NCBI RefSeq assembly: GCF_003018255.1
Contig: NZ_CP027440.1
Direction: 5' to 3' (one strand)
Source: Escherichia coli
Lineage (GTDB): Bacteria; Pseudomonadota; Gammaproteobacteria; Enterobacterales; Enterobacteriaceae
Length of the DNA stretch: 64,000 nt
This document shows positions 10,933 through 39,770 of the stretch, piece after piece (positions within the stretch are counted from its first letter, which is position 1; each line of letters begins with the position of its first letter). The notes beneath the pieces are model-generated. The model was not told the origin of the DNA. It searched no databases and saw only the letters and a list, made by a program, of their open reading frames with translations. The position numbers were made by a program, and so were the translations under genes.

Positions 10933-11481
10933 TCACTGATCAAGCAAATCTGCACGCGCAGCGCTCAAATATTGCAACATTGACCACAGAGTCAGTACCG
11001 CAGCCACAAAGAAAAGTGCAATACCGGCGTACTCAACCCAAATGTTCGGACGCCACAGCAGCCAGGCCAGCGCCACCATCTGGGCAGTGGTTTTCACTTT
11101 CCCAATCCAGGAGACAGCCACGCTACTGCGTTTACCCAACTCCGCCATCCATTCGCGTAACGCAGAAATAATAATTTCACGGGCGATCATCGTTGCTGCC
11201 GGTAAGGTCACCCACCAGCTGTGATAATGCTCGGTTACCAGCACCATGGCGATAGCCACGAGAACTTTATCTGCTACAGGGTCAAGGAAAGCACCAAACC
11301 GGGTACTCTGGTTCCAGCGGCGTGCCAGAAAACCATCGAACCAGTCAGTCACCGCCGCGACGCAGAAAATGAGCGCGGCGGCAAACGGCGACCAGGTGAC
11401 AGGCAGATAAAAGACCAATACAAAGAATGGGATAAGGATGACACGGAACAGTGTAAGCAACGTAGGGATATTAAATTGCAT
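10933..11481 (-). CDS. pgsA: CDP-diacylglycerol--glycerol-3-phosphate 3-phosphatidyltransferase PgsA
   Basis: 182-aa [28 protein letters not shown]... with the CDP-alcohol phosphatidyltransferase motif region DGFLAR...G...D...D. Confidence 0.93.
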
Positions 11482-11537
11482 AATGACGGGTAACTATCTG
11501 TTGTCAGTAAGATTACCCCTATGTTGCTACAGAGACA

Positions 11538-13370
11538 TCAATGTTTCAACGACCAGAAGATCTTTTCTGCCAGACCTTGCGAAATACCCGGCACTTTTGC
11601 AATTTCCTCGACGCTGGCGTTACGTAAACCTTGCAAACCGCCCATATATTTCAACAACATTTGCCGACGTTTTGGCCCGACGCCTTCAATGGTTTCCAGG
11701 GAACTGGTATTTTTGACCTTCGCCCGTTTTTTACGGTGCCCGCCAATCGCGTGATCGTGTGATTCATCGCGAATATGCTGGATAACATGCAGTGCGGGAG
11801 AATCTGGCGGCAAACTGAATCCCTCACCTTCCGGCTCAAAGAACAGCGTTTCCAGCCCAGCCTTACGATCTGCTCCTTTGGCAACGCCTAGTAGCAGCGG
11901 ATGATTTTTATCCCATGAGACATCCAGTTCGGCGAAAACATTTTTCGCCTGCGCAAGTTGGCCTTTGCCGCCGTCGATAAGGATCACATCCGGGATCTTA
12001 CTCTCGTCGATGGCTTTACCATAACGCCGACGCAGCACCTGATTCATCGCCGCATAATCATCGCCCGGCGTGATGCCAGTAATGTTATAGCGTCGATACT
12101 CCGCACGCAGCGGGCCGTTAGCATCAAACACCACACAGGAAGCGACGGTTTGTTCCCCCATGGTATGGCTGATGTCAAAGCATTCCATCCGCTTCACTTC
12201 CGGCAATTTCAACACGCTGGCAAGCGCGGTCAGTCGCTGGTGAACGGTAGATTGCTGCGAAAGTTTGCTGGTTAAGGCCGTCGCCGCATTGGTGCGCGCG
12301 AGTTTCAGATAACGCGCCCGATCGCCGCGAGGTTTGGTTTGAACATTAATCTTGCGTCCCGCCAGTTCTGAAAGGGAATCGGCGAGCAGCGTTTTATCGC
12401 TAAGATTAAAATCGAGCAGGATCTCACCCGGTAAGGTGCGCATCTGGCTGCCTTGTAAATAGAACTGACCTACGAAGGTTTCCACCACCTCGCTCAGTTC
12501 CGTACCGCCAGGCACTTTCGGGAAATAGCTGCGGCTGCCGAGCACTTTACCCTGACGAATGAACAATACGTGGACACAAGCCATGCCCGCATCGAACGCC
12601 ACACCAATAACGTCGAGGTCGTCGCCGGTATTGGACACAAACTGTTTTTCGGTGACGCGTCGCACCGCCTGAATTTGGTCGCGAATACGTGCCGCTTCTT
12701 CAAACTCCAGATTCTGGCTGGCAGTTTCCATACGACTAATGAGTTGCGTAAGCACCTGATCATCTTTGCCAGACAAAAACAGGCGCACATACTCGACCTG
12801 CTGAGCGTATTCTTCTTCACTCACCAGTCCTTCAACGCACGGTCCCAGACAGCGCCCTATCTGATATTGCAGACACGGACGCGAGCGATTGCGATAAACA
12901 CTATTTTCGCACTGGCGAATGGGGAATATCTTTTGCAGTAGCGCCAGTGTTTCACGTACGGCATAGCCATTCGGGAACGGGCCGAAATATTCACCTTTAG
13001 CATGCTTCGCACCACGATGCATCGCCAGACGCGGATGGGTATCGCCACTCAGGAAGATAAAGGGATAAGATTTATCATCGCGTAGCAAAACGTTGTAACG
13101 CGGCTGATAGAGTTTGATGTAGTTGTGTTCCAGCAACAGCGCTTCGGTTTCTGTATGAGTAACCGTTACATCAATTTGCTGGATCTGGGCGACCAGCGCT
13201 TCGGTTTTGCGCGAAGCGAGGTTGCTACGGAAATAGCTGGAAAGCCGTTTTTTCAGGTCTTTCGCTTTGCCGACATAGATAACCGTACCACCAGCATCGT
13301 ACATGCGATAAACGCCTGGCTGGCTGGTTACGGTTTTTAAAAACGCTTTTGCGTCAAACTGATCACTCAC
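11538..13370 (-). CDS. uvrC: excinuclease ABC subunit C UvrC
   Basis: 610-aa [50 protein letters not shown] (GIY-YIG N-terminal domain). Confidence 0.95.
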
Positions 13371-14023
13371 TGACTTGATAATGTCTCCGCATTACACAGA
13401 CCATGGCGAATTGCCAGGTGAGTCAGCTCAACATCGCCATGAATGTTTAGTTTACTGAACATACGATAGCGGTAGCTGTTCACCGTTTTCGGACTGAGAT
13501 TGAGCTGTTCTGAGATCTCATTGACCTTCTGGCCCTTGGTGATCATCAGCATAATCTGCAATTCACGTTCAGACAAACTGGCAAATGGGCTTTCTGTTTT
13601 TTCTGGTTCGATCTGGCTTAACGCCATTTGTTGAGCGATGTCAGAAGCAATGTAACGCTGCCCTGAATAGACAGAACGGATCGCACTCACAACTTCCTGC
13701 GGAGCCGCGCCTTTGCTGAGGTAGCCCGCAGCACCGGCCTGCATGACTTTCGCTGGTAAAGGGTTTTCTGTATGGACGGTAAGCATGATGATTTTAACAT
13801 CAGCTGTGGAACGCGCGATTTTACGCGTCGCCTCAAGGCCGCCAATGCCCGGCATACTCATGTCCATTAGCACCACGTCAACGGCATTTGCCCGGCACCA
13901 TTTAACGGCGTCTTCACCGCACGATGCCTCTCCGACGACTTTTATACCCTTTATATCTTCCAGAATGCGTCGTATCCCTGCGCGCACCAGTTCGTGGTCA
14001 TCAACAAGTAGAACGTTGATCAA
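13367..14023 (-). CDS. uvrY: response regulator UvrY (BarA/UvrY two-component system, LuxR/FixJ family)
   Basis: 218-aa [26 protein letters not shown]... with receiver domain and C-terminal HTH; overlaps the uvrC start by 4 bp. Confidence 0.93.
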
Positions 14024-14481
14024 AGGAATATCTCCAGAAATAGGGATAACGCTACTGATAGTTAGTCATTCGTATATTAGCGGTTTTTATTGCAACTTTG
14101 AAACGTTAAAAATGGTGGGTATTCGATTTTTCTCTCGTTTTTGTAAATTCGATTGTCCACAGTTATGGTCACGCCCGTCACCAACGGCTTCCGGGATCGT
14201 TTCACTGTAAGCCCTGCGATGAAATGTGACAAAAATTGACTTTATTCAGCAAAAATGAAAATCAGCCCGCTGAATATGTAACATTAATTAACCCGAACAA
14301 TACGGGCAAAAAACATTCATGATAAAAATATTTATTGGTCATTATATTAACGTATTTTATAGCACTGCCGATATCACGCTCAAAAAACAACCACTGCTAT
14401 TTTTAGCAAAGCTTATGGTATACTCCGCCGCCTTAACATTTTTCACCGCAAATTTTCATTGCAACATGACGAGGAAAATAA

Positions 14482-14706
14482 ATGAGTACGCCTGATTTTT
14501 CTACTGCCGAGAATAATCAAGAACTGGCAAATGAAGTCTCCTGCCTGAAAGCGATGCTGACGCTGATGCTGCAGGCGATGGGACAAGCTGACGCGGGCCG
14601 CGTGATGTTAAAGATGGAAAAACAGCTTGCGCTGATCGAAGACGAAACCCAGGCTGCAGTATTTTCCAAAACGGTTAAGCAAATTAAACAAGCCTACCGT
14701 CAGTAA
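14482..14706 (+). CDS. yecF: uncharacterised protein YecF
   Basis: 74-aa [42 protein letters not shown]... Confidence 0.8.
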
Positions 14707-14772
14707 TATAAAACCGGCTGAGAGCGTGCCTTTCAGCCGGTTTTTGCATCTGGCACGCAGAAAGAAAAGCGA

Positions 14773-15495
14773 TCAAATTAAGCCAGTAGCGGCCGCGTAA
14801 CAGGCCACCTGGGTCTTATTTGGTGCATTGATTTTTTTCTGCATGTTTTTCTGATGGAAATTGACCGTATTCTCAGAGATTGACAAAATCATCGCTATCT
14901 CTGCTGATGTCTTCCCTTCCGCCGTCCATTTCAGAATTTCTTTTTCGCGCTTGCTGAAATTCATCTCTGGCGTCATCACTATTTCATCATTTAAACGCAT
15001 CAGAGCCATCAGACTTTCGCGCACCAGTAACTGCATTTTTAATTGCAGTTCATCACTAAGAATGGGTATTTCGCGCGCAGTGCAACGGGAAAAGGACAAA
15101 AAGCCCAGCGCCCGGTTTGGCAGCATTAAATACTGAGTGACACCGCGGCGTAAACCATGCGCGCGCGCAGCTTCCCATAACGGCTGTGCTTCGCTGAATA
15201 AGTCATCATTCCACATTAAATGGCCCTGACTAAAGTTTTCAGGGTTCAGTACAGGATCAATTGCGAGAAAGTTTTTTGCCTGATAATAACTAACCCACGC
15301 CTCAGGGTAATTGGTGTAGAAAGCCACTTTAGGTCGCGTGAATGGTACCGGGTGGCGAACACATAACGAATAGTAATCGTACTCCAGCTGCTGAGCCTGA
15401 AGCTCTATTTCATGGTAGACCTCTTCTGCGGCCTCCATCCTCTGAAAACGCAACAGCATCGTGCGACGCCAGCTGAAAAAATCCGTATCCTGCAT
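14773..15495 (-). CDS. sdiA: LuxR-family quorum-sensing regulator SdiA
   Basis: ORF 14773..15507; start trimmed to MQDTDFFSWRRTMLLRFQRMEAAEEVYHEIELQAQQLEYDYYSL (240 aa). Confidence 0.92.
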   Translation of the reverse strand: MQDTDFFSWRRTMLLRFQRMEAAEEVYHEIELQAQQLEYDYYSLCVRHPVPFTRPKVAFYTNYPEAWVSYYQAKNFLAIDPVLNPENFSQGHLMWNDDLFSEAQPLWEAARAHGLRRGVTQYLMLPNRALGFLSFSRCTAREIPILSDELQLKMQLLVRESLMALMRLNDEIVMTPEMNFSKREKEILKWTAEGKTSAEIAMILSISENTVNFHQKNMQKKINAPNKTQVACYAAATGLI

Positions 15496-15724
15496 AGTAA
15501 ACCGCAACGCCCCTGAGAGTGAGTATCATTTATAATGATAATTCAAACTATCACATAAATAAGATTTATATATAATTTATATTATTCAGGCAATGAATTA
15601 CTTTTGCAAGCCATCGCATTCTCTTATGTTATTAATGAGTTATGCTGATTTGTTAAGCAGTTTTATCACGTTTGAAGTGGCGCACCGCCCCGACAGGTGA
15701 ATCGTCGGGGCTGATTTTTTCTTA

Positions 15725-16477
15725 TTATTGCAGCAGAAACTTCTCGAGGAACTGGCGGGTGCGAGGCTGCTCGGGATCGGCAAATAACGCTTTTGCGGCC
15801 CCCTGCTCGACTATCCGCCCCTGGTCCATAAAGATCGCCCGGTCCGCAACATCCCGGGCAAAGCTCATTTCGTGCGTCACAATCACCATCGTGCGCTTTT
15901 CCTGCGCCAGCTGGCGGATGGTGTTCAGGACTTCGCCCACCAGCTCTGGATCCAGCGCCGACGTTGGCTCGTCAAACAAAATCACTTCAGGACGCATAGC
16001 CAGCGCTCGCGCAATCGCGACACGCTGCTGTTGACCGCCAGACAAACGACGTGGATAGCTGGTTTCTTTACCTGCCAGCCCAACTTTCGCCAGCAGCTCG
16101 CGAGCGCGCGCCGTGGCCTCTTCTTTCGGTTCGCCTTTGACGATCACCGGCCCTTCAATAATGTTTTCCAGCACCGTACGATGCGGAAACAAATTAAAGT
16201 TCTGGAAGACAAACCCGACGTGCTGACGCAACTGGCGAATCAGCGATTTTTGCTGACTTAATGAACGTGCAGTATCAATGGTGATATCGCCAACGGTGAT
16301 GGTTCCCGCTTCCGGTTGTTCCAGCAGATTTATGCTGCGTAGCAACGTGGTTTTGCCGGAACCACTTGGACCGATAATTGCCACCACTTCGCCAGGCTTC
16401 ACCTCAAGGTCGATACCGTGCAGCACCGTCTGACCGTGGAATTTTTTCACCAGGTTCTTAACTTCAATGGCACTCAT
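15725..16477 (-). CDS. tcyN: L-cystine ABC transporter ATP-binding protein TcyN (YecC)
   Basis: 250-aa ABC ATPase with GPSGSGKTT Walker A and LSGGQQQRVAIARAL signature. Confidence 0.92.
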   Translation of the reverse strand: MSAIEVKNLVKKFHGQTVLHGIDLEVKPGEVVAIIGPSGSGKTTLLRSINLLEQPEAGTITVGDITIDTARSLSQQKSLIRQLRQHVGFVFQNFNLFPHRTVLENIIEGPVIVKGEPKEEATARARELLAKVGLAGKETSYPRRLSGGQQQRVAIARALAMRPEVILFDEPTSALDPELVGEVLNTIRQLAQEKRTMVIVTHEMSFARDVADRAIFMDQGRIVEQGAAKALFADPEQPRTRQFLEKFLLQ

Positions 16478-17142
16478 TTTGGTTCTCTCTCCTGGCGATT
16501 AAGTTGATTCTCAAAATGGTTCTGCAACGTCGATAATACTGTCGCCATGATCCAGTAGATGAGCGAAGCCGCCAGGTACATGGTGAACACCTCCAGCGTG
16601 CGCGAGGTAATCAACTGCGCCTGACGGAACAGCTCCGGCACCTGGATTGTCGCGGCCAGCGACGTATCTTTTACCAGGCTGATAAAGCTGTTCGACAGCG
16701 GCGGCAACGCCACACGCGCCGCCTGTGGCAAAATCGCGCGACGCATGGTCTGCCACGGCGTCATACCAATACTGGCAGCAGCTTCCCACTGACCTTTATC
16801 AATAGAAGAAATGGCGGCGCGCAGTGTTTCGGCGGCATAGGCGGCAGTGTTTAGCGACAGACCAATCATTGCTGACGGAATGGGATCTAATTCGATGCCA
16901 AACTGCGGCAGGCCGTAATAGATCATAAACAGTTGTGCGATGAGTGGCGTACCACGAAAAATAGAGATATAAAAACGCGCCAGCCAGCGCACGGGCCAGA
17001 TTGGCGAAAGGCGCATCAGCGCGAGAATAAACCCGAGCAGTAAGCCAAAAAACATGCCGCCGATACTGAGTTGCAGCGTATACCCAGCCCCTTTCAGCAG
17101 GAACGGCAAGGAATCAATAACCAGTTGTATACTTTCTTGCAT
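16474..17142 (-). CDS. tcyL: L-cystine ABC transporter permease TcyL (YecS)
   Basis: 222-aa polar-amino-acid ABC permease; 4-bp overlap with tcyN. Confidence 0.92.
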   Translation of the reverse strand: MQESIQLVIDSLPFLLKGAGYTLQLSIGGMFFGLLLGFILALMRLSPIWPVRWLARFYISIFRGTPLIAQLFMIYYGLPQFGIELDPIPSAMIGLSLNTAAYAAETLRAAISSIDKGQWEAAASIGMTPWQTMRRAILPQAARVALPPLSNSFISLVKDTSLAATIQVPELFRQAQLITSRTLEVFTMYLAASLIYWIMATVLSTLQNHFENQLNRQEREPK

Positions 17143-17156
17143 GAGCGTTTCCGGAG

Positions 17157-19048
<1,892 letters not shown>

Positions 19049-19135
19049 ATTTACCCCGAATGTTGTTATGTCTGTTTGCAGTGTAGAGCCATTGTTTGTA
19101 AACACAAAAACAACTCCGCTACATCTTATTCTTAT

Positions 19136-19687
19136 TTAATATATATCAGAAGCAGGCAGACTGGAGGATTTCTGCACAAGTCCGGTACACGTTTGACGCT
19201 GATAGTGTTGATACTTCCGTAACGCAATGCGGTAATTGTTGGTGCTGGTGGTGGGCAGCCACGGGGCGAGGATTTCATCAAGGAAACCGTCCTGCAGCTG
19301 ATCGAGGGAAATATTTTGCTCGTGTAGATGATTACCCAAACGGCGCAGACGAACGACATATTCACGCACCGTACCTGGGCTCATTTCAGTTTGCTCAAAA
19401 AGAAATTGCTTAAAGCCGATAATATCGAAAAAATCACTCTGCGTTTTGCAATGTAAATCACCGCAAAATCGGCACAATGCCGCCCATGATTTTTGTTCCA
19501 CTTGCCAGCCATTTTCATCAAGCAGCATGTCCAGGCGGGAAATCTCGATTTTATTCACTATTTTGCCGTCGCGAACGAGGGTAATGCGATCGAGTAATTT
19601 ACGGCAATGCGCGCAATGGGTCTGGCTGTGTTTAAAGTCTTTAAGATAGCGGCTTAATGGCCGTCTTTTCAGGTGCTGCACCATCAT
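19136..19687 (-). CDS. fliZ: flagellar regulator FliZ
   Basis: ORF 19136..19723; start trimmed to MMVQHLKRRPLSRYLKDFKHSQTHCAHCRKLLDRITLVRDGK (183 aa). Confidence 0.92.
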   Translation of the reverse strand: MMVQHLKRRPLSRYLKDFKHSQTHCAHCRKLLDRITLVRDGKIVNKIEISRLDMLLDENGWQVEQKSWAALCRFCGDLHCKTQSDFFDIIGFKQFLFEQTEMSPGTVREYVVRLRRLGNHLHEQNISLDQLQDGFLDEILAPWLPTTSTNNYRIALRKYQHYQRQTCTGLVQKSSSLPASDIY

Positions 19688-19732
19688 TAAGAACTCCTGG
19701 TAGTCAAAATTAAAGTGCGGCATTTACTGACG

Positions 19733-20452
19733 TTATAACTTACCCAGTTTAGTGCGTAACCGTTTAATGGCCTGGCTGTGTAACTGACTGACCCGCGATT
19801 CCCCGACCTCCAGCACCGCGCCAATCTCTTTGAGATTCAGCTCTTCCTGGTAATAGAGGGTTAATACCAGTTTTTCGCGCTCCGGCAACGTTTCGATAGC
19901 TTCCATCACCCGCTGGCGCAGATTACTGTCCAGCAGTTGTTGTAGCGGGTTTTCTCGCTGATGATCATCAGTAACCAGTTCGATGCTATCGCCGTGCTCT
20001 TCGCGCCACTCATCGTAGGAGAAGAGCTGGCTGTTATTGGTGTCGAGCAACATTTGGCGATAGTCGGCAATATCGATCCCTAAACGTTCCGCTACCTCAG
20101 TTTCCGTGGCGTTGCGGCCAAGTTCCTGCTCCAGTTGCCCTATTGCCTGTGCCACTTCACGCGCGTTGCGTCGCACGCTGCGCGGCACCCAGTCACGGCT
20201 GCGAAGTTCATCCAGCATAGCGCCACGGATACGCTGCACTGCGTAAGTTGTAAATGCCGTTCCTTGTAGGGCGTCATAGCGTTCGACGGCATTGAGTAAC
20301 CCAATGCCGCCCGCCTGTAGCAGATCGTCAAGTTCCACGCTCGCGGGCAGTCGAACCTGCAGGCGCAATGCTTCGTGACGCACCAGCGGGACATAACGCT
20401 GCCACAGCGAGTGTTTATCCATTACACCTTCAGCGGTATAGAGTGAATTCAC
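19733..20452 (-). CDS. fliA: flagellar sigma factor FliA (sigma-28)
   Basis: 239-aa ORF MNSLYTAEGVMDKHSLWQRYVPLVRHEALRLQVRLPASVELDDLLQAGGIGLLNAVERYD. Confidence 0.95.
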   Translation of the reverse strand: MNSLYTAEGVMDKHSLWQRYVPLVRHEALRLQVRLPASVELDDLLQAGGIGLLNAVERYDALQGTAFTTYAVQRIRGAMLDELRSRDWVPRSVRRNAREVAQAIGQLEQELGRNATETEVAERLGIDIADYRQMLLDTNNSQLFSYDEWREEHGDSIELVTDDHQRENPLQQLLDSNLRQRVMEAIETLPEREKLVLTLYYQEELNLKEIGAVLEVGESRVSQLHSQAIKRLRTKLGKL

Positions 20453-20573
20453 GATAAACAGCCCTGCGTTATATGAGTTATCGGCATGATTATCCGTTTC
20501 TGCAGGGTTTTTAATCGGACGATTAGTGGGTGAAATGAGGGGTTATTTGGGGGTTACCGGTAAATTGCGGGCA

Positions 20574-20597
20574 GAAAAAACCCCGCCGTTGGCGGGG
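20574..20597 (-). terminator. candidate rho-independent terminator about 175 nt downstream of fliC
   Basis: Plus strand aaaaaaa-ccccgcc-gtt-ggcgggg; on the minus strand this is a GC hairpin followed by a U7 run. Confidence 0.55.
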
Positions 20598-20629
20598 AAG
20601 CACGTTGCTGACAAATTACCATTCATGTT

Positions 20630-20663
<34 letters not shown>

Positions 20664-20698
20664 AAAATCCGCAAATTCAATAAATTGCAATTCACCTT

Positions 20699-20727
20699 GT
20701 AGGCCTGATAAGCGCAGCGCATCAGGC
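20699..20727. repeat. REP element, inverted partner (with the previous one forms a BIME-like pair)
   Basis: GTAGGCCTGATAAGCGCAGCGCATCAGGC, in inverted orientation relative to the REP at 20630. Confidence 0.85.
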
Positions 20728-20770
20728 AATTTGGCGTTGCCGTCAGTCTCAGTTAATCAGGTTACGACGA

Positions 20771-22510
20771 TTAACCCTGCAGCAGAGACAGAACCTGCTG
20801 CGGTACCTGGTTAGCTTTTGCCAGCACGGAGTTACCGGCCTGCTGGATGATCTGCGCTTTCGACATGTTGGACACTTCGGTCGCATAGTCGGCGTCCTGA
20901 ATACGGGACTGCGCTTCGGACAGGTTGGTAGTGGTGTTGTTCAGGTTGGTGACCGCGGAATCCAGACGGTTTTGCACCGCACCGAGGGAGGAGCGGAATT
21001 TGTCGATGGAGCTGATGGCTTCGTCCAGAGCTTTCAGTGGATCGGCGGTGGTTGCAGCTTTAGTTTCAGCGTCAGTAGTAAAATTACCATCCGCTGAAAC
21101 ATAGACTGCTTTACCTGAACCATTGGTCACAGTTCCGTCTTTTTGCAAAAACAGATTGGTTGTATTATCGGTAGTCAGTGAACCATCAGCTTTGGTGTAA
21201 GCGTCTTCAAAAACTGTACCTGTGTATTGTTGTACTATACCTTTACTATCAACTTTAATATCGCCTGCGCTGGTACCAGTAGCTCCAACATCAACTGTGA
21301 ATCCTGTGGACTTAGTTGCCGATTGAAGAGACTCAGCACTCATTCTTGCATTTGCTACAGTGATTGCACCAGAAGTAGTAGCATCAGTACCGCCATCCAG
21401 AGTGAAGGTTGTTTCATCTTCAGTTGTAATTACCGTAGATACGGCACCCGGTGTGCCTGTTGTATGCCAGTTTTTAGTCAGTGCATCAAGAGTGGCTGCT
21501 TTGACAGTCCCAGCATTGTTTTGAGTGAGGTTACCATCTACGTCAATAAATAGTTCTGAACCATCTTTCGCGGTAATTTTACCGTCGCTAGCCAATACAA
21601 CGTCAATTGACGTAGAACCAATTTTAACGTTTAAGTTAGCAGTATCGCCCGCTTTTGGTGTCAGGAAGGATTGTAACTGAGCACTGTTACTATCACCAGA
21701 ATTTGTACCAGCTGCAATAGTTGCACTATATGTAAAATCACCTGTAGCGCTGTTGTATGTATAATCTGTAGCTGTTGGCGATCCAAAACCATTTGCAATT
21801 GTGGCATTAACTTTTGCGTTATTAGCCAAACTCGCAATTACATCTGCAGCTGTAGATGTTTTCAGGCCTGCGCTAACAGTATAGGTAACTGTACCATTAG
21901 CATCAGCAGTACCTGGAGCCAAGAGTTGAGCTGCTGCCAAATCAGATTTAGTCGCTGCAGTATTAGCCACAGCCCCGCCACCATTCACATTAAACCCACT
22001 CAGCCCCAGCGTATCAGAGTCAATTTTCTTCAGATCAATAGTGATAGTCTGGCCGTCATTCGCACCAACCTGAATTTTCATTGAACCGTCTTTCGCCAGT
22101 ACGTTCACGCCGTTGAACTGGGTCTGGCCAGATACGCGGTCAATTTCGTCCAGACGGGATTTGATTTCGTCCTGAATGGAGTCCAGATCCGAATCGGAGT
22201 TAGTCCCGGTAGAAGCCTGAACCGTCAGTTCACGGATACGCTGTAAGTTGTTGTTGATTTCGGACAGCGCGCCTTCGGTGGTCTGTGCAACGGAGATACC
22301 GTCGTTGGCGTTACGTGCAGCTTGAGTCAGACCTTTAATGTTAGAAGTAAAACGGTTAGCAATCGCCTGACCTGCGGCGTCATCCTTCGCGCTGTTAATA
22401 CGCAAGCCAGAAGACAGACGCTCGATAGAACTCGACAGCGCAGACTGGTTCTTGTTGATATTATTTTGAGTGATCAGCGAGAGGCTGTTGGTATTAATGA
22501 CTTGTGCCAT
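20771..22510 (-). CDS. fliC: flagellin FliC (579 aa; conserved termini, hypervariable central domain; not the K-12 allele)
   Basis: N-terminus MAQVINTNSLSLITQNNINKNQSALSSSIERLSSGLRINSAKDDAAGQAIANRF and C-terminus ...QVPQQVLSLLQG; T/S/A/G-rich central region. Confidence 0.95.
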   Translation of the reverse strand: MAQVINTNSLSLITQNNINKNQSALSSSIERLSSGLRINSAKDDAAGQAIANRFTSNIKGLTQAARNANDGISVAQTTEGALSEINNNLQRIRELTVQASTGTNSDSDLDSIQDEIKSRLDEIDRVSGQTQFNGVNVLAKDGSMKIQVGANDGQTITIDLKKIDSDTLGLSGFNVNGGGAVANTAATKSDLAAAQLLAPGTADANGTVTYTVSAGLKTSTAADVIASLANNAKVNATIANGFGSPTATDYTYNSATGDFTYSATIAAGTNSGDSNSAQLQSFLTPKAGDTANLNVKIGSTSIDVVLASDGKITAKDGSELFIDVDGNLTQNNAGTVKAATLDALTKNWHTTGTPGAVSTVITTEDETTFTLDGGTDATTSGAITVANARMSAESLQSATKSTGFTVDVGATGTSAGDIKVDSKGIVQQYTGTVFEDAYTKADGSLTTDNTTNLFLQKDGTVTNGSGKAVYVSADGNFTTDAETKAATTADPLKALDEAISSIDKFRSSLGAVQNRLDSAVTNLNNTTTNLSEAQSRIQDADYATEVSNMSKAQIIQQAGNSVLAKANQVPQQVLSLLQG

Positions 22511-22586
22511 GATTCGTTATCCTATATTGCAAGTCGTTGATTACGTATTGGGTTTCCACCCGTCGGCTCAATCGCCGTCAACCCTG

Positions 22587-22613
22587 TTATCGTCTGTCGT
22601 AAAACAACCTTTA
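22587..22613 (-). promoter_or_regulatory. sigma-28 (FliA) class 3 promoter of fliC
   Basis: Minus strand reads TAAAGGTT-N11-GACGATAA, fitting the sigma-28 consensus TAAAGTTT-N11-GCCGATAA. Confidence 0.75.
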
Positions 22614-22704
22614 GAATTTTTTTCACAAACAGCCATTTTTTGTTAGTCGCCGAAATACTCTTTTCTCTGCCCCTTATTCCCGCTATTAAAAAAAACAATT
22701 AAAC

Positions 22705-22731
22705 GTAAACTTTGCGCAATTCAGGCCGATA
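22705..22731 (+). promoter_or_regulatory. sigma-28 (FliA) promoter of fliDST
   Basis: TAAACTTT-N11-GCCGATAA, a near-perfect sigma-28 consensus 45 bp upstream of the fliD start. Confidence 0.75.
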
Positions 22732-22775
22732 ACCCCGGTATTCGTTTTACGTGTCGAAAGATAAAAGGAAATCGC

Positions 22776-24182
22776 ATGGCAAGTATTTCATCGCTGGGAG
22801 TCGGGTCAGGTCTGGATTTAAGTTCAATCCTTGATAGCCTCACCGCCGCGCAAAAAGCGACGCTAACCCCTATTTCAAATCAGCAATCGTCGTTTACCGC
22901 TAAACTTAGCGCCTACGGTACGCTGAAAAGCGCGCTGACGACTTTCCAGACCGCCAATACTGCATTGTCTAAAGCCGATCTTTTTTCCGCCACCAGCACT
23001 ACCAGCAGCACCACCGCGTTCAGTGCCACCACTGCGGGTAACGCCATCGCCGGGAAATACACCATCAGCGTCACCCATCTGGCGCAGGCGCAAACCCTGA
23101 CCACGCGCACCACCAGAGACGATACGAAAACGGCGATCGCCACCAGCGACAGTAAACTCATCATTCAACAAGGCGGCGACAAAGATCCGATTACCATTGA
23201 TATCAGCGCGGCTAACTCATCGTTAAGCGGGATCCGTGATGCTATCAACAACGCAAAAGCGGGCGTAAGCGCAAGCATCATTAACGTGGGTAACGGTGAA
23301 TATCGTCTGTCAGTCACATCAAATGACACCGGCCTTGATAATGCGATGACACTCTCGGTCAGCGGTGATGATGCGCTACAAAGTTTTATGGGCTATGACG
23401 CCAGTGCCAGCAGCAACGGCATGGAGGTCTCGGTCGCCGCCCAGAATGCGCAGCTGACGGTCAACAACGTCGCCATTGAGAACAGCAGCAACACCATCAG
23501 CGACGCGCTGGAAAACATCACCCTGAACCTGAACGATGTCACCACGGGCAACCAGACGCTAACCATCACTCAGGACACCTCCAAAGCGCAAACGGCGATT
23601 AAAGACTGGGTGAATGCCTATAACTCGCTAATAGATACCTTCAGCAGCCTGACCAAATACACCGCCGTAGATGCGGGAGCTGATAGCCAGAGTTCTAGCA
23701 ATGGCGCACTGCTCGGCGACTCCACGTTGCGGACGATTCAGACGCAGTTGAAATCGATGCTGAGTAATACCGTTAGTTCTTCCAACTATAAAACGTTGGC
23801 GCAGATTGGTATCACGACCGATCCCAGCGATGGCAAACTGGAACTGGATGCCGACAAACTCACCGCTGCACTGAAAAAAGATGCCAGCGGCGTAGGTGCA
23901 TTGATTGTTGGCGATGGTAAAAAAACCGGCATCACGACCACCATCGGCAGCAACCTGACCAGTTGGCTTTCGACAACAGGCATTATTAAAGCCGCTACCG
24001 ATGGCGTTAGTAAGACCCTGAATAAGTTAACCAAAGACTACAACGCCGCCAGCGATCGCATTGATGCGCAGGTCGCGCGCTACAAAGAGCAATTTACCCA
24101 ACTGGACGTTTTAATGACCTCGTTAAACAGCACCAGCAGCTACTTAACGCAGCAGTTCGAAAACAACAGTAATTCCAAGTAA
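22776..24182 (+). CDS. fliD: flagellar filament capping protein FliD
   Basis: 468-aa ORF MASISSLGVGSGLDLSSILDSLTAAQKATLTPISNQQSSFTAKLSAYGTLKSAL. Confidence 0.95.
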   Translation: MASISSLGVGSGLDLSSILDSLTAAQKATLTPISNQQSSFTAKLSAYGTLKSALTTFQTANTALSKADLFSATSTTSSTTAFSATTAGNAIAGKYTISVTHLAQAQTLTTRTTRDDTKTAIATSDSKLIIQQGGDKDPITIDISAANSSLSGIRDAINNAKAGVSASIINVGNGEYRLSVTSNDTGLDNAMTLSVSGDDALQSFMGYDASASSNGMEVSVAAQNAQLTVNNVAIENSSNTISDALENITLNLNDVTTGNQTLTITQDTSKAQTAIKDWVNAYNSLIDTFSSLTKYTAVDAGADSQSSSNGALLGDSTLRTIQTQLKSMLSNTVSSSNYKTLAQIGITTDPSDGKLELDADKLTAALKKDASGVGALIVGDGKKTGITTTIGSNLTSWLSTTGIIKAATDGVSKTLNKLTKDYNAASDRIDAQVARYKEQFTQLDVLMTSLNSTSSYLTQQFENNSNSK

Positions 24183-24206
24183 TCAATATTCATCGGGAGA
24201 CAGGTC

Positions 24207-24617
24207 ATGTACGCGGCAAAAGGCACCCAGGCCTATGCACAAATTGGCGTCGAAAGCGCCGTAATGAGCGCCAGCCAGCAACAGCTGGTCACCATGCTAT
24301 TTGATGGAGTGCTGAGCGCACTGGTTAGAGCGCGCCTGTTTATGCAGGACAACAATCAGCAAGGCAAAGGCGTCTCTTTGTCAAAAGCGATCAACATCAT
24401 TGAGAACGGGCTGCGGGTGAGTCTTGATGAAGAGAGCAAAGACGAACTAACCCAAAACTTGATTGCTCTTTATAGCTATATGGTCAGGCGCTTGCTGCAA
24501 GCCAATTTACGCAACGATGTCTCCGCAGTCGAAGAAGTGGAAGCATTAATGCGCAATATTGCCGATGCCTGGAAAGAGTCTTTACTCTCCCCTTCTTTGA
24601 TTCAGGACCCAGACTGA
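24207..24617 (+). CDS. fliS: flagellin-specific export chaperone FliS
   Basis: 136-aa [37 protein letters not shown]. Confidence 0.93.
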
Positions 24618-24982
24618 TGAACAATGCACCGCATTTGTATTTCGCCTGGCAACAACTCGTCGAAAAAAGTCAGCTCATGTTACGCCTGGCGACAGAAGAA
24701 CAATGGGACGAACTCATCGCCAGCGAAATGGCGTATGTGAATGCGGTGCAGGAGATCGCACACCTGACTGAAGAGGTTGCCCCGTCCACCACGATGCAGG
24801 AGCAGCTCCGCCCGATGCTGCGCCTGATTCTCGACAACGAAAGCAAGGTAAAGCAGTTATTACAGATTCGGATGGATGAACTGGCGAAACTGGTCGGTCA
24901 GTCATCGGTGCAAAAATCGGTGTTAAGTGCCTATGGCGATCAGGGTGGCTTTGTGCTGGCTCCGCAGGATAACCTCTTTTGA
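24617..24982 (+). CDS. fliT: flagellar chaperone and anti-FlhDC factor FliT
   Basis: 121-aa ORF directly following fliS (ATGA overlap). Confidence 0.9.
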
Positions 24983-25059
24983 ATCTTAAAGAGCCAATGG
25001 CTCGCGAATAATCTGATTACGGCTACGCTTCTAATGTTCCCCTTGAATGGAGTCGAAGA

Positions 25060-26547
25060 ATGCGTAATCCCACGCTGTTACAATGTTTTCACTGGTATTA
25101 CCCGGAAGGCGGTAAGCTCTGGCCTGAACTGGCCGAGCGCGCCGACGGTTTTAATGATATTGGTATCAATATGGTCTGGTTGCCGCCCGCCTATAAAGGC
25201 GCATCGGGCGGGTACTCGGTCGGCTACGACTCCTATGATTTATTTGATTTAGGCGAGTTTGATCAGAAAGGCAGCATCCCTACTAAATATGGCGATAAAG
25301 CACAACTGCTGGCCGCCATTGACGCCCTGAAACGTAATGACATTGCGGTGCTGCTGGACGTGGTAGTCAACCACAAAATGGGCGCGGATGAAAAAGAAGC
25401 TATTCGCGTGCAACGTGTAAATGCTGATGACCGTACGCAAATTGACGAAGAAATCATTGAGTGCGAAGGCTGGACGCGTTACACCTTCCCCGCGCGTGCC
25501 GGGCAATACTCGCAGTTTATCTGGGATTTCAAATGTTTTAGCGGTATCGACCATATCGAAAACCCTGATGAAGATGGCATTTTTAAAATTGTTAACGACT
25601 ATACCGGAGAAGGCTGGAACGATCAGGTTGATGATGAACTCGGTAATTTCGATTATCTGATGGGTGAGAATATCGATTTTCGCAATCATGCCGTGACGGA
25701 AGAGATTAAATACTGGGCGCGCTGGGTGATGGAACAAACGCAATGCGACGGCTTTCGTCTTGATGCGGTCAAACATATTCCGGCATGGTTTTATAAAGAG
25801 TGGATCGAACACGTACAGGAAGTTGCGCCAAAGCCGCTGTTTATTGTGGCTGAATACTGGTCGCATGAAGTCGATAAACTGCAAACGTATATTGATCAGG
25901 TGGAAGGCAAAACCATGCTGTTTGATGCGCCGCTGCAGATGAAATTCCATGAAGCATCGCGCATGGGTCGCGACTACGACATGACGCAGATCTTCACTGG
26001 GACGCTGGTGGAAGCCGATCCTTTTCACGCCGTAACCCTCGTTGCCAACCACGACACCCAACCGTTGCAAGCCCTCGAAGCACCGGTCGAACCGTGGTTT
26101 AAACCGCTGGCGTATGCCTTAATTTTGTTGCGGGAAAATGGCGTTCCTTCGGTGTTCTATCCGGACCTCTACGGTGCACATTACGAAGATGTCGGTGGTG
26201 ACGGGCAAACCTATCCGATAGATATGCCAATAATCGAACAGCTTGATGAGTTAATTCTCGCCCGTCAGCGTTTCGCCCACGGTGTACAGACGTTATTTTT
26301 CGACCATCCGAACTGCATTGCCTTTAGCCGCAGTGGCACCGACGAATATCCCGGCTGCGTGGTGGTCATGTCGAACGGGGATGATGGCGAAAAAACCATT
26401 CATCTGGGAGAGAATTACGGCAATAAAACCTGGCGTGATTTTCTGGGGAATCGGCAAGAGAGCGTAGTGACCGACGAAAACGGCGAAGCGACCTTCTTTT
26501 GCAACGGCGGCAGCGTCAGCGTGTGGGTTATCGAAGAGGTGATTTAA
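25060..26547 (+). CDS. amyA: cytoplasmic alpha-amylase AmyA (GH13)
   Basis: 495-aa [50 protein letters not shown] with GH13 motifs ([15 protein letters not shown]). Confidence 0.93.
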
Positions 26548-26553
26548 ATTCAT

Positions 26554-26572
26554 CCCCGGCGGCAAGCCGGGG
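26554..26572. terminator. candidate bidirectional terminator hairpin between convergent amyA and yedD
   Basis: ccccggc-ggcaa-gccgggg perfect 7-bp GC stem; the flanking U-run is weak. Confidence 0.4.
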
Positions 26573-26580
26573 AGATTTCA

Positions 26581-26994
26581 TTACGGCAGTGGCGTCGGTA
26601 ACGGCGCTTTATCCAGCGCGGCGGCACACTCTGCCGTCGGGCGATCCACACGCTCCATCGTCATACCATCGTACTCAATGGTGTTACCGTCACGCTCAAC
26701 CTCGTACAGCTCACGTTTCACGGTAACGTTAGTGAGATCATCAGACATCAATGTCAACTTACCCGGCACGGCAATCACCCGCTGCCACTGACGGCAATCC
26801 AGGGTATCGCCCTCTTTAGTGACAATCAGGCTGCCTATCGCTTCCGGACTGACCAGCGCACTTTGCGGCCCTTTGGTCTGCCAGTAGCCCGCCAGCCAGT
26901 CCGGCGCGGGGGTTTTCACGACATTGTTATAGTTTTCGACTTCGGCACAGCCCGCCAGCAACATGAGCGCGCCTGCAATTGCGAGTTTTTTCAT
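26581..26994 (-). CDS. yedD: lipoprotein YedD
   Basis: Lipoprotein signal MKKLAIAGALMLLAGC; ORF 26581..26997. Confidence 0.85.
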   Translation of the reverse strand: MKKLAIAGALMLLAGCAEVENYNNVVKTPAPDWLAGYWQTKGPQSALVSPEAIGSLIVTKEGDTLDCRQWQRVIAVPGKLTLMSDDLTNVTVKRELYEVERDGNTIEYDGMTMERVDRPTAECAAALDKAPLPTPLP

Positions 26995-27180
26995 CATTCG
27001 TCCTGCATGAGAAGAAAAGAGGATTGTGGCATTAAAGCCCTGATGTCGCCAGCCTTTCCAGGTTCAGAGAGAAATTTGATCTAACTATTATTTTTGTGAA
27101 TTATTACCCCGAAAATAAATTTGCTTGATGTATGATTCGCAACTCTTGTTTCAAACCTTCTGAGTTCAGAGGCTACATAC

Positions 27181-28386
27181 ATGTCATGGCAGCAATTCAA
27201 ACACGCCTGGTTGATTAAATTCTGGGCCCCCATCCCTGCGGTCATCGCGGCGGGTATTCTCTCCACTTACTACTTTGGCATCACTGGCACCTTTTGGGCT
27301 GTCACGGGTGAATTTACCCGCTGGGGCGGTCAGCTTCTGCAGCTGTTCGGCGTCCATGCTGAAGAGTGGGGTTATTTTAAAATTATCCATCTGGAAGGAT
27401 CGCCATTAACCCGCATCGACGGCATGATGATCCTCGGTATGTTTGGCGGCTGCTTTGCTGCAGCGCTGTGGGCCAACAATGTCAAACTACGCATGCCACG
27501 CAGCCGTATCCGCATTATGCAGGCCATTATTGGCGGCATTATCGCTGGTTTTGGCGCGCGTCTGGCAATGGGCTGTAACCTGGCGGCGTTCTTTACCGGC
27601 ATTCCTCAGTTCTCGCTGCATGCCTGGTTCTTTGCCATCGCCACTGCCATTGGTTCATGGTTTGGCGCGCGCTTTACCCTGCTGCCCATCTTCCGTATTC
27701 CCGTGAAAATGCAGAAAGTTTCTGCCGCCTCACCGCTGACGCAAAAACCGGATCAGGCGCGGCGTCGTTTTCGTCTCGGGATGCTGGTCTTTTTCGGCAT
27801 GCTGGGCTGGGCGCTGCTCACGGCGATGAACCAACCAAAACTGGGGCTGGCAATGCTGTTTGGCGTCGGCTTTGGTTTACTGATTGAACGTGCGCAAATC
27901 TGCTTTACTTCGGCGTTCCGCGATATGTGGATCACCGGACGTACCCATATGGCGAAAGCAATCATTATCGGTATGGCGGTGAGTGCCATCGGGATCTTCA
28001 GTTACGTACAGTTAGGCGTTGAACCTAAAATCATGTGGGCGGGACCAAATGCGGTAATTGGTGGTTTACTTTTTGGTTTTGGCATCGTGCTGGCAGGCGG
28101 CTGCGAAACCGGCTGGATGTACCGCGCGGTAGAAGGCCAGGTGCACTACTGGTGGGTCGGTCTGGGCAACGTGATCGGCTCAACGATTCTGGCGTATTAC
28201 TGGGATGATTTCGCTCCGGCGCTGGCCACCGACTGGGACAAAATCAACCTGCTGAAAACCTTTGGTCCGATGGGTGGCCTGCTGGTGACATATTTGCTGT
28301 TGTTTGCAGCTCTAATGTTGATTATCGGCTGGGAAAAACGCTTCTTCCGCCGTGCGGCACCGCAGATTGCTAAGGAGATCGCATGA
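27181..28386 (+). CDS. yedE: YedE/YeeE family membrane protein (putative selenium/thiosulfate-related transporter)
   Basis: 401-aa multi-pass ORF MSWQQFKHAWLIKFWAPIPAVIAAGILSTYYFGITG...; paired with the TusA-like yedF. Confidence 0.88.
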   Translation: MSWQQFKHAWLIKFWAPIPAVIAAGILSTYYFGITGTFWAVTGEFTRWGGQLLQLFGVHAEEWGYFKIIHLEGSPLTRIDGMMILGMFGGCFAAALWANNVKLRMPRSRIRIMQAIIGGIIAGFGARLAMGCNLAAFFTGIPQFSLHAWFFAIATAIGSWFGARFTLLPIFRIPVKMQKVSAASPLTQKPDQARRRFRLGMLVFFGMLGWALLTAMNQPKLGLAMLFGVGFGLLIERAQICFTSAFRDMWITGRTHMAKAIIIGMAVSAIGIFSYVQLGVEPKIMWAGPNAVIGGLLFGFGIVLAGGCETGWMYRAVEGQVHYWWVGLGNVIGSTILAYYWDDFAPALATDWDKINLLKTFGPMGGLLVTYLLLFAALMLIIGWEKRFFRRAAPQIAKEIA

Positions 28387-28616
28387 AAAATATCGTTCCT
28401 GATTACCGTCTTGATATGGTGGGTGAACCCTGCCCTTATCCGGCTGTCGCAACCCTTGAGGCGATGCCGCAGTTAAAAAAAGGGGAGATCCTGGAAGTGG
28501 TGAGCGACTGTCCGCAGTCGATCAATAATATTCCACTGGATGCGCGTAATCACGGCTATACGGTGCTGGATATTCAGCAAGACGGGCCGACCATTCGTTA
28601 TTTAATTCAGAAGTAA
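28383..28616 (+). CDS. yedF: TusA-like sulfurtransferase-family protein YedF
   Basis: 77-aa ORF with the conserved CPxP motif (GEPCPYPAV); 4-bp overlap with yedE. Confidence 0.88.
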   Translation: MKNIVPDYRLDMVGEPCPYPAVATLEAMPQLKKGEILEVVSDCPQSINNIPLDARNHGYTVLDIQQDGPTIRYLIQK

Positions 28617-28724
28617 TCCCTCATTCCCGCTGTGGCCCACAGCGGGAACATCGTTACCACTCTATCACATAGATTTTACCCGCCCCCTCTCCTATTCTTT
28701 TCAGTGTGCTCTCAGGAGGTTTCT

Positions 28725-29393
28725 ATGTGTGGACGCTTTGCCCAATCCCAAACGCGTGAAGATTACCTCGCGTTTCTCGCGGAAGATATTGAACGCGATA
28801 TTCCCTACGATCCCGAACCTATTGGCAGATACAACGTCGCGCCGGGAACCAAAGTCCTTCTGCTCAGTGAACGTGATGAACACCTTCATCTGGATCCGGT
28901 TTTCTGGGGATATGCTCCCGGATGGTGGGATAAACCGCCGCTGATTAACGCCCGCGTAGAAACTGCCGCAACCAGTCGCATGTTTAAACCGCTCTGGCAA
29001 CACGGTCGGGCAATCTGTTTTGCCGATGGCTGGTTTGAGTGGAAAAAAGAAGGCGACAAAAAACAGCCTTATTTTATCTATCGCGCTGACGGACAACCTG
29101 TTTTTATGGCCGCGATAGGTAGCACACCGTTTGAGCGTGGTGACGAAGCCGAAGGATTTTTGATCGTCACTGCGGCGGCAGATCAAGGTCTGGTAGATAT
29201 TCATGACCGCCGCCCGCTGGTTCTGTCGCCAGAAGCTGTACGGGAATGGATGCGGCAAGAGGTTGGCGGTAAAGAAGCCTCAGAAATTGCTGCCAGTGGC
29301 TGTGTGCCAGCAAACCAGTTCACCTGGCACCCGGTATCGTGCGCGGTGGGTAATGTTAAAAACCAGGGAGCGGCGTTAATTCAACCTGTTTGA
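28725..29393 (+). CDS. yedK: SOS-response-associated peptidase (SRAP) YedK, abasic-site-processing protein
   Basis: ORF 28632..29393; start trimmed to MCGRFAQSQTREDYLAFLAE (Met-Cys2 N-terminus typical of SRAP proteins; 222 aa). Confidence 0.88.
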   Translation: MCGRFAQSQTREDYLAFLAEDIERDIPYDPEPIGRYNVAPGTKVLLLSERDEHLHLDPVFWGYAPGWWDKPPLINARVETAATSRMFKPLWQHGRAICFADGWFEWKKEGDKKQPYFIYRADGQPVFMAAIGSTPFERGDEAEGFLIVTAAADQGLVDIHDRRPLVLSPEAVREWMRQEVGGKEASEIAASGCVPANQFTWHPVSCAVGNVKNQGAALIQPV

Positions 29394-29503
29394 TAAGCCT
29401 GGAGATTATTGATCAACAATACTGCGTCATAAGAAATCTCTATTAGACAAAGATTTCAGTACCTGTTGGCATATTGCAAAAATAACACCAATACGGAATC
29501 GTC

Positions 29504-29983
29504 ATGTTCACGATTAAAACAGATGATCTCACCCATCCAGCAGTGCAAGCATTAGTGGCTTACCATATTTCCGGCATGCTGCAGCAGTCTCCCCCCGAAA
29601 GTAGTCATGCTTTAGATGTGCAAAAATTACGTAACCCGAAAGTGACATTCTGGTCAGTATGGGAAGGCGAACAACTCGCAGGAATTGGTGCGCTGAAGTT
29701 GCTGGATGATAAACATGGCGAACTGAAATCAATGCGTACCGCGCCAAATTATTTACGTCGGGGTGTCGCCAGTCTGATTTTACGCCACATTTTGCAGGTC
29801 GCCCATGACAGATGCCTTCATCGCCTGAGCTTAGAAACGGGTACACAGGCTGGATTTACGGCCTGCCATCAACTTTATTTGAAACATGGATTCGTTGATT
29901 GCGAACCGTTTGCTGATTATCAACTTGATCCGCACAGTCGATTTTTGTCATTGACGCTATGCGAAAATAATGAATTGCCATGA
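29504..29983 (+). CDS. yedL: GNAT-family N-acetyltransferase YedL
   Basis: 159-aa ORF MFTIKTDDLTHPAVQALVAYHISGMLQQSPPESSHALDV... with acetyl-CoA-binding-like region RRGVASLIL. Confidence 0.85.
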   Translation: MFTIKTDDLTHPAVQALVAYHISGMLQQSPPESSHALDVQKLRNPKVTFWSVWEGEQLAGIGALKLLDDKHGELKSMRTAPNYLRRGVASLILRHILQVAHDRCLHRLSLETGTQAGFTACHQLYLKHGFVDCEPFADYQLDPHSRFLSLTLCENNELP

Positions 29984-30387
29984 GCCAGACGCAGCACATT
30001 CTTGCATTCGACGTGCTGCGCCTTTATTTATTATCAGCCGCAAATGTCTTGTCCTTAGACGCTCTTTCCACATGCGCCACAAGAAACCTCTATTCCAGTG
30101 ACACAATTATGCCTGATTATTTCCCTAGCCCGGAATATGAATAAAAACATCAAATAAGATGAAATTATCAAAATATTAATGTTGCGTCTGAGGTCGTAAC
30201 AACATCCGACGTGGTGATATGTCAAATGAGACACTCTGATGGTCAAAGGGTTTATCGCGTTTACAGATCGTGGATGGCAGAAAACTTTCAGAATCAGGTT
30301 TCCATTTTAAACCAGAAATTAAGTGAGTTTGTCCCATCCATGCCCCACGCGGTGAGATCGGATGTAATCAACAACAGGTTACAAAAC

Positions 30388-30702
30388 CTACACCTGCATG
30401 CTCATCACTTCCTGATACGCCGCCACCAGCTTATTACGCACCTGAATCCCCATTTGCATTGAAACTGAGGCTTTTTGCATATCGGTCATCACATCGTTTA
30501 ACGCCACGCCGGGTTCACCGAGAGTGAATTTTTCTGCCTGCGTGCGGGCGGCTGTTTGTGTATCGCTTATGCGATCGAGCGCGGCGTGCAGCTGCCCGGC
30601 AAAACTAATGGTCGGTTGTGGCAGTGATTCCTGTGTACGCGCACTCATCGCCGTAGCCTGTAACTGGCTGATAACCCCTTCAATCCCCTGTATCGCTGAC
30701 AT
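30388..30702 (-). CDS. fliE: flagellar hook-basal body complex protein FliE
   Basis: ORF 30388..30732; start trimmed to [22 protein letters not shown] (104 aa). Confidence 0.92.
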
Positions 30703-30916
30703 TTTCATCTCCCGGATAATTTCTGGCAGCAAAGCCTACCAGTAAGTCAATAAGACAAAGGCGCTAAATAGCAACAAAAAAACGGGTTTATTGGCGGATA
30801 GAAAAAAACGAAAGCACAAATAATGGGAGCGTCAATTTTTCGAGTTTGCTGACCCGGGAGTGAGTCTTGTTCCACTTTGCCAATAACGCCGTCCATAATC
30901 AGCCACGAGGTGCGCG

Positions 30917-34241
<3,325 letters not shown>

Positions 34242-34242
<1 letters not shown>

Positions 34243-35615: not shown

Positions 35616-35633
35616 CCCAGGAGATAACGGCAG

Positions 35634-36077
35634 ATGACAGAACATGGCGCGCTGGCGACCCTGAAAGATCTGGCAGAAAAAGAGGTAGAGGATGCCGCGC
35701 GCCTGCTGGGTGAAATGCGTCGGGGATGTCAGCAGGCGGAAGAACAGCTCAAAATGCTGATCGATTATCAGAATGAATATCGCAATAACCTCAATAGCGA
35801 TATGAGTGCCGGGATGACCAGCAACCGCTGGATCAACTATCAGCAGTTTATCCAGACGCTGGAAAAAGCCATTACTCAGCATCGCCAGCAACTTAATCAG
35901 TGGACGCAGAAAGTAGACATTGCCCTGAACAGCTGGCGAGAAAAGAAACAACGTTTGCAGGCTTGGCAGACACTGCAGGAACGGCAATCCACGGCGGCAC
36001 TGCTTGCAGAAAACCGCCTCGATCAGAAAAAGATGGATGAGTTCGCCCAGCGCGCCGCCATGAGGAAACCTGAATGA
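35634..36077 (+). CDS. fliJ: flagellar export protein FliJ
   Basis: 147-aa coiled-coil [34 protein letters not shown]. Confidence 0.92.
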
Positions 36078-37201: not shown

Positions 37202-37305
37202 CGTCAGAGGTAGCACCGTAATCCGCGTCTTTTCCCCGCTTTGTTGCGCTCAAGACGCAGGATAATTAGCCGATAAGCAGTAGCGACACAGGAAGACCGC
37301 AACAC

Positions 37306-37770: not shown

Positions 37771-37774
37771 CGAC

Positions 37775-39557: not shown

Positions 39558-39770
39558 TGCGTCGTTTGTTGTCTGTCGCACCTGTCCTTCTCTGGCTGGT
39601 TACGCCCCTCGCCTTCGCGCAACTGCCGGGTATCACCAGCCAGCCGCTGCCTGGCGGTGGACAAAGCTGGTCGCTCCCGGTGCAGACGCTGGTGTTCATT
39701 ACCTCGTTGACGTTTATCCCGGCAATTTTACTGATGATGACCAGTTTCACCCGCATCATCATTGTTTTTG

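Follow-up and report, generated by a model that had tools for sequence, protein, structure and literature searches.

The fliC gene considered here lies in a 64,000-nt stretch of Escherichia coli DNA (contig NZ_CP027440.1), which was analysed at its full length and is referred to as the window. It raises the questions of which H antigen is encoded, how the hypervariable centre of the gene was acquired and if an interrupted fliP gene located ~17 kb away keeps the flagellin from being made.

The open reading frame at 20771–22510 on the minus strand starts with ATG and encodes 579 aa plus a stop codon, amounting to 1740 bp. A Pfam scan of the translation revealed Flagellin_N at aa 5–140, PF12445 ‘FliC’ at aa 349–483 and Flagellin_C at aa 492–577, with PF00669 at 158 bits (cutoff 26.6) and PF00700 at 110 bits (cutoff 23) both passing the curated cut-offs. 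The NCBIfam model NF005953 ‘FliC/FljB family flagellin’ was matched from end to end with 791 bits against a cutoff of 619. The locus shows the order fliZ-fliA-fliC / fliD-S-T, with fliZ-fliA following fliC on its own strand and fliD-fliS-fliT diverging from it upstream. By its domains, the NF005953 match, the locus and a sigma-28 promoter, the protein is a bacterial flagellin of the FliC/FljB family, confirming the position, length and gene identity given in a first-pass annotation of this DNA. The E. coli flagellins compared in this study span 498 to 670 aa, with 579 aa lying well inside this range, and an H28 fliC allele of 579 aa, which the gene proved to be on nucleotide identity (see below), is not unusual, H28 being a common, catalogued H type.

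The first-pass annotation had described canonical N- and C-terminal D0/D1 regions flanking a centre unrelated to the K-12 flagellin, and both statements were borne out using MG1655 FliC (498 aa, from NC_000913.3) as the K-12 reference. BLASTP analysis showed 94% amino acid identity over aa 1–175 (21986–22510, minus strand; D0/D1 helices and beta-hairpin) and 96% over aa 488–579 (20771–21049, minus strand, including the stop codon; D1/D0 helices). For aa 176–487 (21050–21985, minus strand), which comprise the outer domains and the H28-specific part of the protein, no alignment to MG1655 FliC was returned by BLASTP; the centre is, hence, not identical to the K-12 allele. The families differ as well. 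The centre of K-12 FliC matches PF08884 Flagellin_D3 and PF21504 FLIC_barrel, that is, D2/D3 domains of the Salmonella type, whereas a Pfam scan of the window FliC revealed neither PF08884 nor PF21504 and PF12445 instead, which places it outside the K-12/Salmonella-type D2-D3 group. A reading of the centre as a mere diverged version of the K-12 domains was rejected on this Pfam content.

In comparison with K-12 H48 FliC and Salmonella FliC (1UCU), the window FliC is, thus, alike in D0/D1 (94–96% identical) and in locus, promoter and 3′ UTR, but different in the Pfam families of the outer domains and in a centre that cannot be aligned by BLASTP, with the K-12 protein being 81 aa shorter. The protein is a standard flagellin, in which the conserved D0/D1 helices polymerise into the filament core, the D0/D1 ends also bear the surfaces for export, FliS binding and TLR5 recognition, and the central 312 residues form surface-exposed outer domains setting H serospecificity.

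The centre had also been described as rich in Thr, Ser, Ala and Gly, which holds for the sum of these residues, making up 51.9% of the central 312 aa (T 17.6, A 15.4, G 10.6, S 8.3) versus ~35% in the termini. It does not hold for Ser, which amounts to 12% in the termini versus 8.3% in the centre, nor does it set the allele apart. As the central region of K-12 FliC has the same bias (T+S+A+G 50.6%), a T/A/G-rich centre is generic for flagellin outer domains rather than allele-specific.

To identify the allele, a set of 5,426 complete E. coli genomes was searched by megablast. The gene was found to be 100% identical over 1740/1740 nt in the genomes of JNE23-011 and JNE112863 and 99.0–99.4% identical at the nucleotide level in a group including ‘O8:H28 strain BMH-17-0027’, SE11 and B7A. 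The encoded protein shares 577 of its 579 aa (99.65%) with WP_000079707.1 of the latter three strains, the changes being A372D and N413T. A search with the central 936 nt gave identities of at least 99% in 68 of the 5,426 genomes and of 86% in about 27 (O145:H28 strains), and other matches were weak or partial; relative to the alleles of O8:H28 and SE11 (O152:H28), this part is 99.8% identical, with two differences that are both non-synonymous. By near-identity to alleles of serotyped strains (577/579 aa; 99.8% of the central nucleotides), the gene defines the H antigen as had been claimed, and this antigen is predicted to be H28.

SE11 has been described as O152:H28 with a fliC-H28 of 1740 bp (Beutin et al. 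2015, PMC4441469). Genetically, H28 forms two clusters, a reference type (O132, O152) and an O145/O28 type of 1743 bp, which are separable by PCR (PMC4441469). A possible assignment of the window fliC to the EHEC-associated fliC-H28[O145] subtype, marking an O145:H28 or O28:H28 lineage, was considered, since the H type name is shared and the length is near-equal (580 versus 579 aa). The centre, however, is only 86.3% identical at the nucleotide level to O145:H28 strain RM12761 and its relatives versus 99.3–100% to the SE11/O8:H28 cluster, and the gene measures 1740 bp and not 1743 bp. The central identity of 86% refutes this subtype, and we attach next to no probability to it. Both forms of the gene carry the H28 name and the arrangement Flagellin_N/PF12445/Flagellin_C, with 93% overall amino acid identity; they differ in the centre (86% nucleotide identity), in one additional codon of the O145 allele (580 aa in RM12761) and in belonging to separate genetic clusters.

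With central 936-nt identities of at least 99% to the SE11/O8:H28 cluster and of 86% to O145:H28, the window fliC was assigned, on sequence, to the reference type; we conclude that the chromosomal fliC is of H28 genotype and falls into the reference-type cluster (SE11 / O132 / O8:H28), not into the O145:H28 EHEC subtype. It agrees with the reference-type alleles of SE11, BMH-17-0027 and B7A in length (1740 bp / 579 aa) and in the locus between fliD and fliA, and differs from them in A372D and N413T as well as in synonymous changes within the conserved parts, dealt with below.

Being located in the outer domains, A372D and N413T could in principle alter some epitopes. Taken further, the window allele would represent a new variant of the H antigen that differs serologically from H28, in line with both changes being non-synonymous and situated in the surface-exposed centre, which was modelled with high confidence. 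Yet the protein is 99.65% identical to that of serotyped H28 strains, and even the far more divergent O145:H28 allele (86% central nucleotide identity) belongs serologically to H28. Moreover, the exact protein is widespread and already named in RefSeq, so that a new variant is considered highly improbable. This protein has the RefSeq accession WP_001563518.1, and 1,238 public-assembly blocks contain it, so that the window allele is neither new nor rare. It is an already known, ordinary, catalogued H28 allele of E. coli.

Horizontal replacement of the centre, as had been suggested in the first-pass annotation, was supported by the surroundings of the gene. The best matches to the flanking chromosome were several genomes of other H types, such as JNE120442, reported as O183:H18 (PMC10793325). 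Comparison of the window with JNE120442 revealed ~99% identity up to position 21027 and again from 21981, but 39–66% in between (~21028–21980). With flanks of ~99% identity enclosing a divergent core of ~950 bp, the exchanged part is the fliC centre, and the crossovers fall within its conserved flanks. The reciprocal pattern was found against mainstream H28 alleles, to which the window allele shows 9–11 synonymous differences in nt 180–495 of the conserved 5′ part, two differences in the 936-nt centre and 0–6, again synonymous, in the 3′ end; these 5′ and 3′ differences are explained by the different chromosomal background. The GC content of the central coding region is 0.432 (whole window, 0.509). 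Homologous recombination, with both crossover points within the conserved fliC ends, would have brought the central cassette into this chromosomal background.

Mosaicism extends beyond fliC. Positions 10771–32510 are 100% identical to a contig of GCA_016773825.1, and positions 20917–39999 are 99.95% identical to GCA_001902655.1. None of the complete RefSeq E. coli genomes matches the whole window, the best ones reaching 99.2–99.5% over the flanks. A sharp change of relatedness was observed with JNE23-011, with pgsA-yedL (10933–29983) being 100% and fliE-fliR (30388–41701) 96–99% identical; fliE-fliO are identical to GCA_033688435.1, with identity ending just upstream of fliP. From these comparisons, the fli region reads as a patchwork of recombined segments, which is ordinary for E. 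coli.

Two further sites were noted along the window. The gap between yedL and fliE (~29984–30388) is a variable spot, where a short integrase remnant is present in the window and in JNE23-011, and this position is taken in other strains sharing this FliF by one or two DUF5503/LRR genes or by an element of the IS200/IS605 family. At ~52150–64000, beyond drpB/yedJ/dcm/vsr, a P2-like prophage is represented by its tail/late region (ogr, gpD, tape measure, tail tube and sheath, tail fibres, baseplate), in which a recombinase adjoins the tail-fibre genes; at this site, the prophage region occurs with ~97% identity in few complete genomes only.

To place the central cassette among known outer domains, it was compared with flagellins in the PDB. 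The central 311 aa matched the flagellin of EPEC O127:H6 (PDB 7SN7/7SQJ) with E=2.4e-14 over 309/311 aa, and with the central region as query, H6 chains were the sole PDB matches at E≤1. The full-length window FliC aligned also with EHEC H7 flagellin (7SN4). An AlphaFold2 model of the monomer, built from a 14-sequence alignment, showed a pLDDT of mostly 80–93 across aa ~180–480 and low values in D0, as is expected for a monomer. Foldseek comparison of the model with the PDB ranked 7SN4, 9N59, 7SN7 and 7SQD (H7, Azotobacter, H6 and Achromobacter filaments) at the top, ahead of Salmonella FliC. The full-length TM-scores to H6/H7 were low (0.35–0.39), because the orientation of the domains towards each other differs in the monomer model; the fold-level assignment, therefore, rests on the Foldseek ranking, the E-values and sequence homology. 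By sequence and model, the central cassette is assigned to the PF12445 / H6-H7-like outer-domain family, with homology to the H6/H7 outer domains.

In H6/H7-type flagellins, outer domains D2–D4 dimerise into a sheath (Kreutzberger et al. 2022, PMC8931119), and mutation of two conserved Asn residues of the D4 interface (H7 N319, N323) impairs motility (PMC8931119). In the alignment, the interface motif GNLTxNNAG is present in all three types (H28 DGNLTQNNAG, H7 AGNLTTNNAG, H6 TGNLTKNNAG), with N327/N331 of H28 aligning with N319/N323 of H7. Conservation of this D4 motif makes an outer layer like that of H6/H7 plausible in H28; by analogy, H28 filaments may carry an H6/H7-like sheath of dimerised outer domains. 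The H28 protein, thus, resembles the flagellins of EPEC O127:H6 and EHEC O157:H7 in an outer region homologous to H6, in having them as best structural neighbours and in the D4 motif with both Asn residues. It differs from H6 in a highly diverged outer region with extra segments (579 versus 548 aa).

Relatives of the central domain were also seen in Kluyvera with 64% identity, as judged from the matches listed (at least 21) in a word-indexed homologue search, a list in which the H28 cluster itself did not appear and from which little can be read on distribution. Related flagellins at loci L012–L015 measure 555–576 aa. In E. coli BS-01 (NZ_CP172816.1; locus L016), an H28-related fliC is annotated as a pseudogene with a frameshift and an internal stop, representing a case of genuine fliC decay, unlike the intact gene of the window.

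The elements required for fliC expression were traced in the window. The sigma-28 consensus is TAAAGTTT-N11-GCCGATAA. A FliA (sigma-28) class 3 promoter of fliC, TAAAGGTT-N11-GACGATAA, was read from the sequence at 22587–22613 on the minus strand, and a sigma-28 promoter of fliD-fliS-fliT, TAAACTTT-N11-GCCGATAA, at 22706–22732 on the plus strand. Between fliC and fliD, the 265-nt intergenic region with its sigma-28 boxes matches motile-type strains exactly, there being no difference from SE11 and O145:H28; the 2 nt differing from K-12 both lie outside the fliC sigma-28 boxes. A sigma-70 promoter scan returned nothing relevant at fliC, as is expected for a sigma-28 promoter.

Downstream of the gene, a 3′ UTR with REP-type palindromes (20598–20770, minus strand) was recognised from sub-threshold Rfam matches and alignment with K-12. 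It is followed by an intrinsic terminator at 20581–20597 on the minus strand, a GC-rich hairpin, CCCCGCCAACGGCGGGG, and then a T-run, which was detected by a terminator scan and is conserved with K-12. The 3′ UTR is homologous to the K-12 region annotated as FliX sRNA, in which the terminator is likewise conserved. Scanning of the fliC region with Rfam yielded nothing above threshold; the sub-threshold REP-derived matches at 20610–20706 were naRNA4 (41.9 bits) and ES036 (27.6 bits). Several positions at ~20620–20670 of the 3′ UTR differ from K-12 and SE11. Transcription would start from the FliA class 3 promoter and end at the intrinsic terminator past the REP-containing 3′ UTR.

The genes serving fliC were found to be in order. 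fliA (sigma-28; 19733–20452, minus strand) is intact, and so is the fliD-fliS-fliT operon (22776–24982, plus strand), encoding the filament cap, the FliC chaperone and a regulator; both are 100% identical to JNE23-011 and have no internal stops. Altogether, fliA, fliZ, fliD, fliS, fliT, fliE, fliF-fliO, fliQ and fliR are full length, with neither stops nor frameshifts. Allele identity, domain content, mosaic structure and the intactness of the local regulatory and accessory genes are, thus, direct observations on the window. The fliC allele itself is intact and apparently expressible, as judged from the sequence; the window contains neither flhDC nor the flg/flh/mot/che genes, and a second flagellin locus or a repressor would be situated outside it.

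This left fliP, reported as disrupted in the first-pass annotation, in which a possible lack of H-antigen expression was suggested on this ground. fliP occupies 39557–40628 on the plus strand and contains an insert of 334 bp at 40001–40334 (plus strand), delimited by a repeat finder and local alignment. Nucleotides 1–444 of the gene correspond to 39557–40000, followed by the insert and by the remainder of fliP ending at 40628. The interrupted gene encodes a truncated product of 154 aa, and the 3′ part forms a separate ORF. Deleting the 334 bp restores a perfect FliP of 245 aa.

The insert is of uneven quality. Its last 210 nt (40125–40334) are 100% identical to 39791–40000, with the repeat finder giving a duplicate of at least 210 nt. 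Its first ~93 nt are a degraded copy of fliP nt ~123–200, located immediately upstream of the duplicated block, with substitutions, indels and a poly-T run of 26 nt; local alignment of this part with upstream fliP scored 49, compared with 25.6 ± 4.0 for shuffled sequences. As it is error-ridden at one end and perfect elsewhere, the insert resembles an unmerged low-quality read or contig overlap.

The distribution of the insert was determined in other genomes. Among the 5,185 complete E. coli genomes having the fliP region, not one contained it, and an exact look-up of the 154-aa truncated FliP returned no record. All relatives that were retrieved with the FliK, FliR or FliF of the window, GCA_001902655.1 included, encode a FliP of 245 aa. 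On these grounds, the 334-bp insert is probably an assembly or sequencing artefact.

A real insert would have consequences for fliC. Without the export gate, FlgM stays inside the cell, FliA is kept inhibited and transcription of fliC does not occur. If the insert was real, silencing of fliC would follow via this checkpoint, which is established knowledge: the frameshift after residue ~148 of FliP would abolish the export gate, no hook-basal body would be formed, FlgM would be retained, FliA inhibited and fliC neither transcribed nor exported, and an intact but cryptic fliC-H28 would reside in a non-motile ‘H-’ [H28] strain. The insert is physically present in the sequence, along with the 154-aa truncated FliP and the separate 3′ ORF, and non-motile E. 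coli strains with intact fliC are common; non-motile strains have been typed as H28 by PCR (PMC4441469). The structure of the insert does not fit, however, since a real tandem duplication is expected to be either uniformly identical or uniformly diverged, while here ~93 noisy nucleotides with a 26-nt poly-T run precede at least 210 exact ones. The insert is absent from all other complete genomes with the region (0/5,185), genomes that are 99.95–100% identical over the neighbouring ~20 kb have the 245-aa FliP, and no decay is seen in other fli genes. We regard a cryptic fliC as unlikely, if not negligibly so.

An artefact in fliP, as favoured here, leaves of the reported disruption the 334-bp insert and the 154-aa truncation in the sequence as given, and these probably do not reflect the strain, the insert being unique and consisting of an error-ridden followed by an exact copy. 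As the insert is probably an artefact, non-expression of the H antigen is not supported, the local expression set of fliC being intact and the insert being unique among ~5,185 complete genomes. We infer that H28 flagellin is made and assembled. The account as a whole, according to which a reference-type H28 fliC has a recombined PF12445 cassette and is not silenced, with the fliP insert ~17 kb away being most likely an artefact, is held with high confidence.

A more far-reaching proposal is that a sheath formed via GNLTxNNAG aids motility in viscous mucus and, separately, that a non-motile lineage arose by a fresh 334-bp duplication in fliP. We consider this proposal possible but rather doubtful. 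If true, the H28 sheath would add a further H type to those with this published mechanism, and silencing via fliP would be an isolated loss-of-function event.

In practice, no conclusion on motility or H-antigen expression should be based on the disrupted fliP before it has been considered as a probable assembly error. Beyond annotation, the finding of an H28 allele is of little consequence. The strain is typable as H28 of the reference type and not of the EHEC O145 subtype, an assignment of use in predicting serotypes and in epidemiology, and with flanks of ~99% identity around an unalignable core of ~950 bp in comparison with an O183:H18 relative, the locus provides a clean worked example of the replacement of the central fliC cassette.
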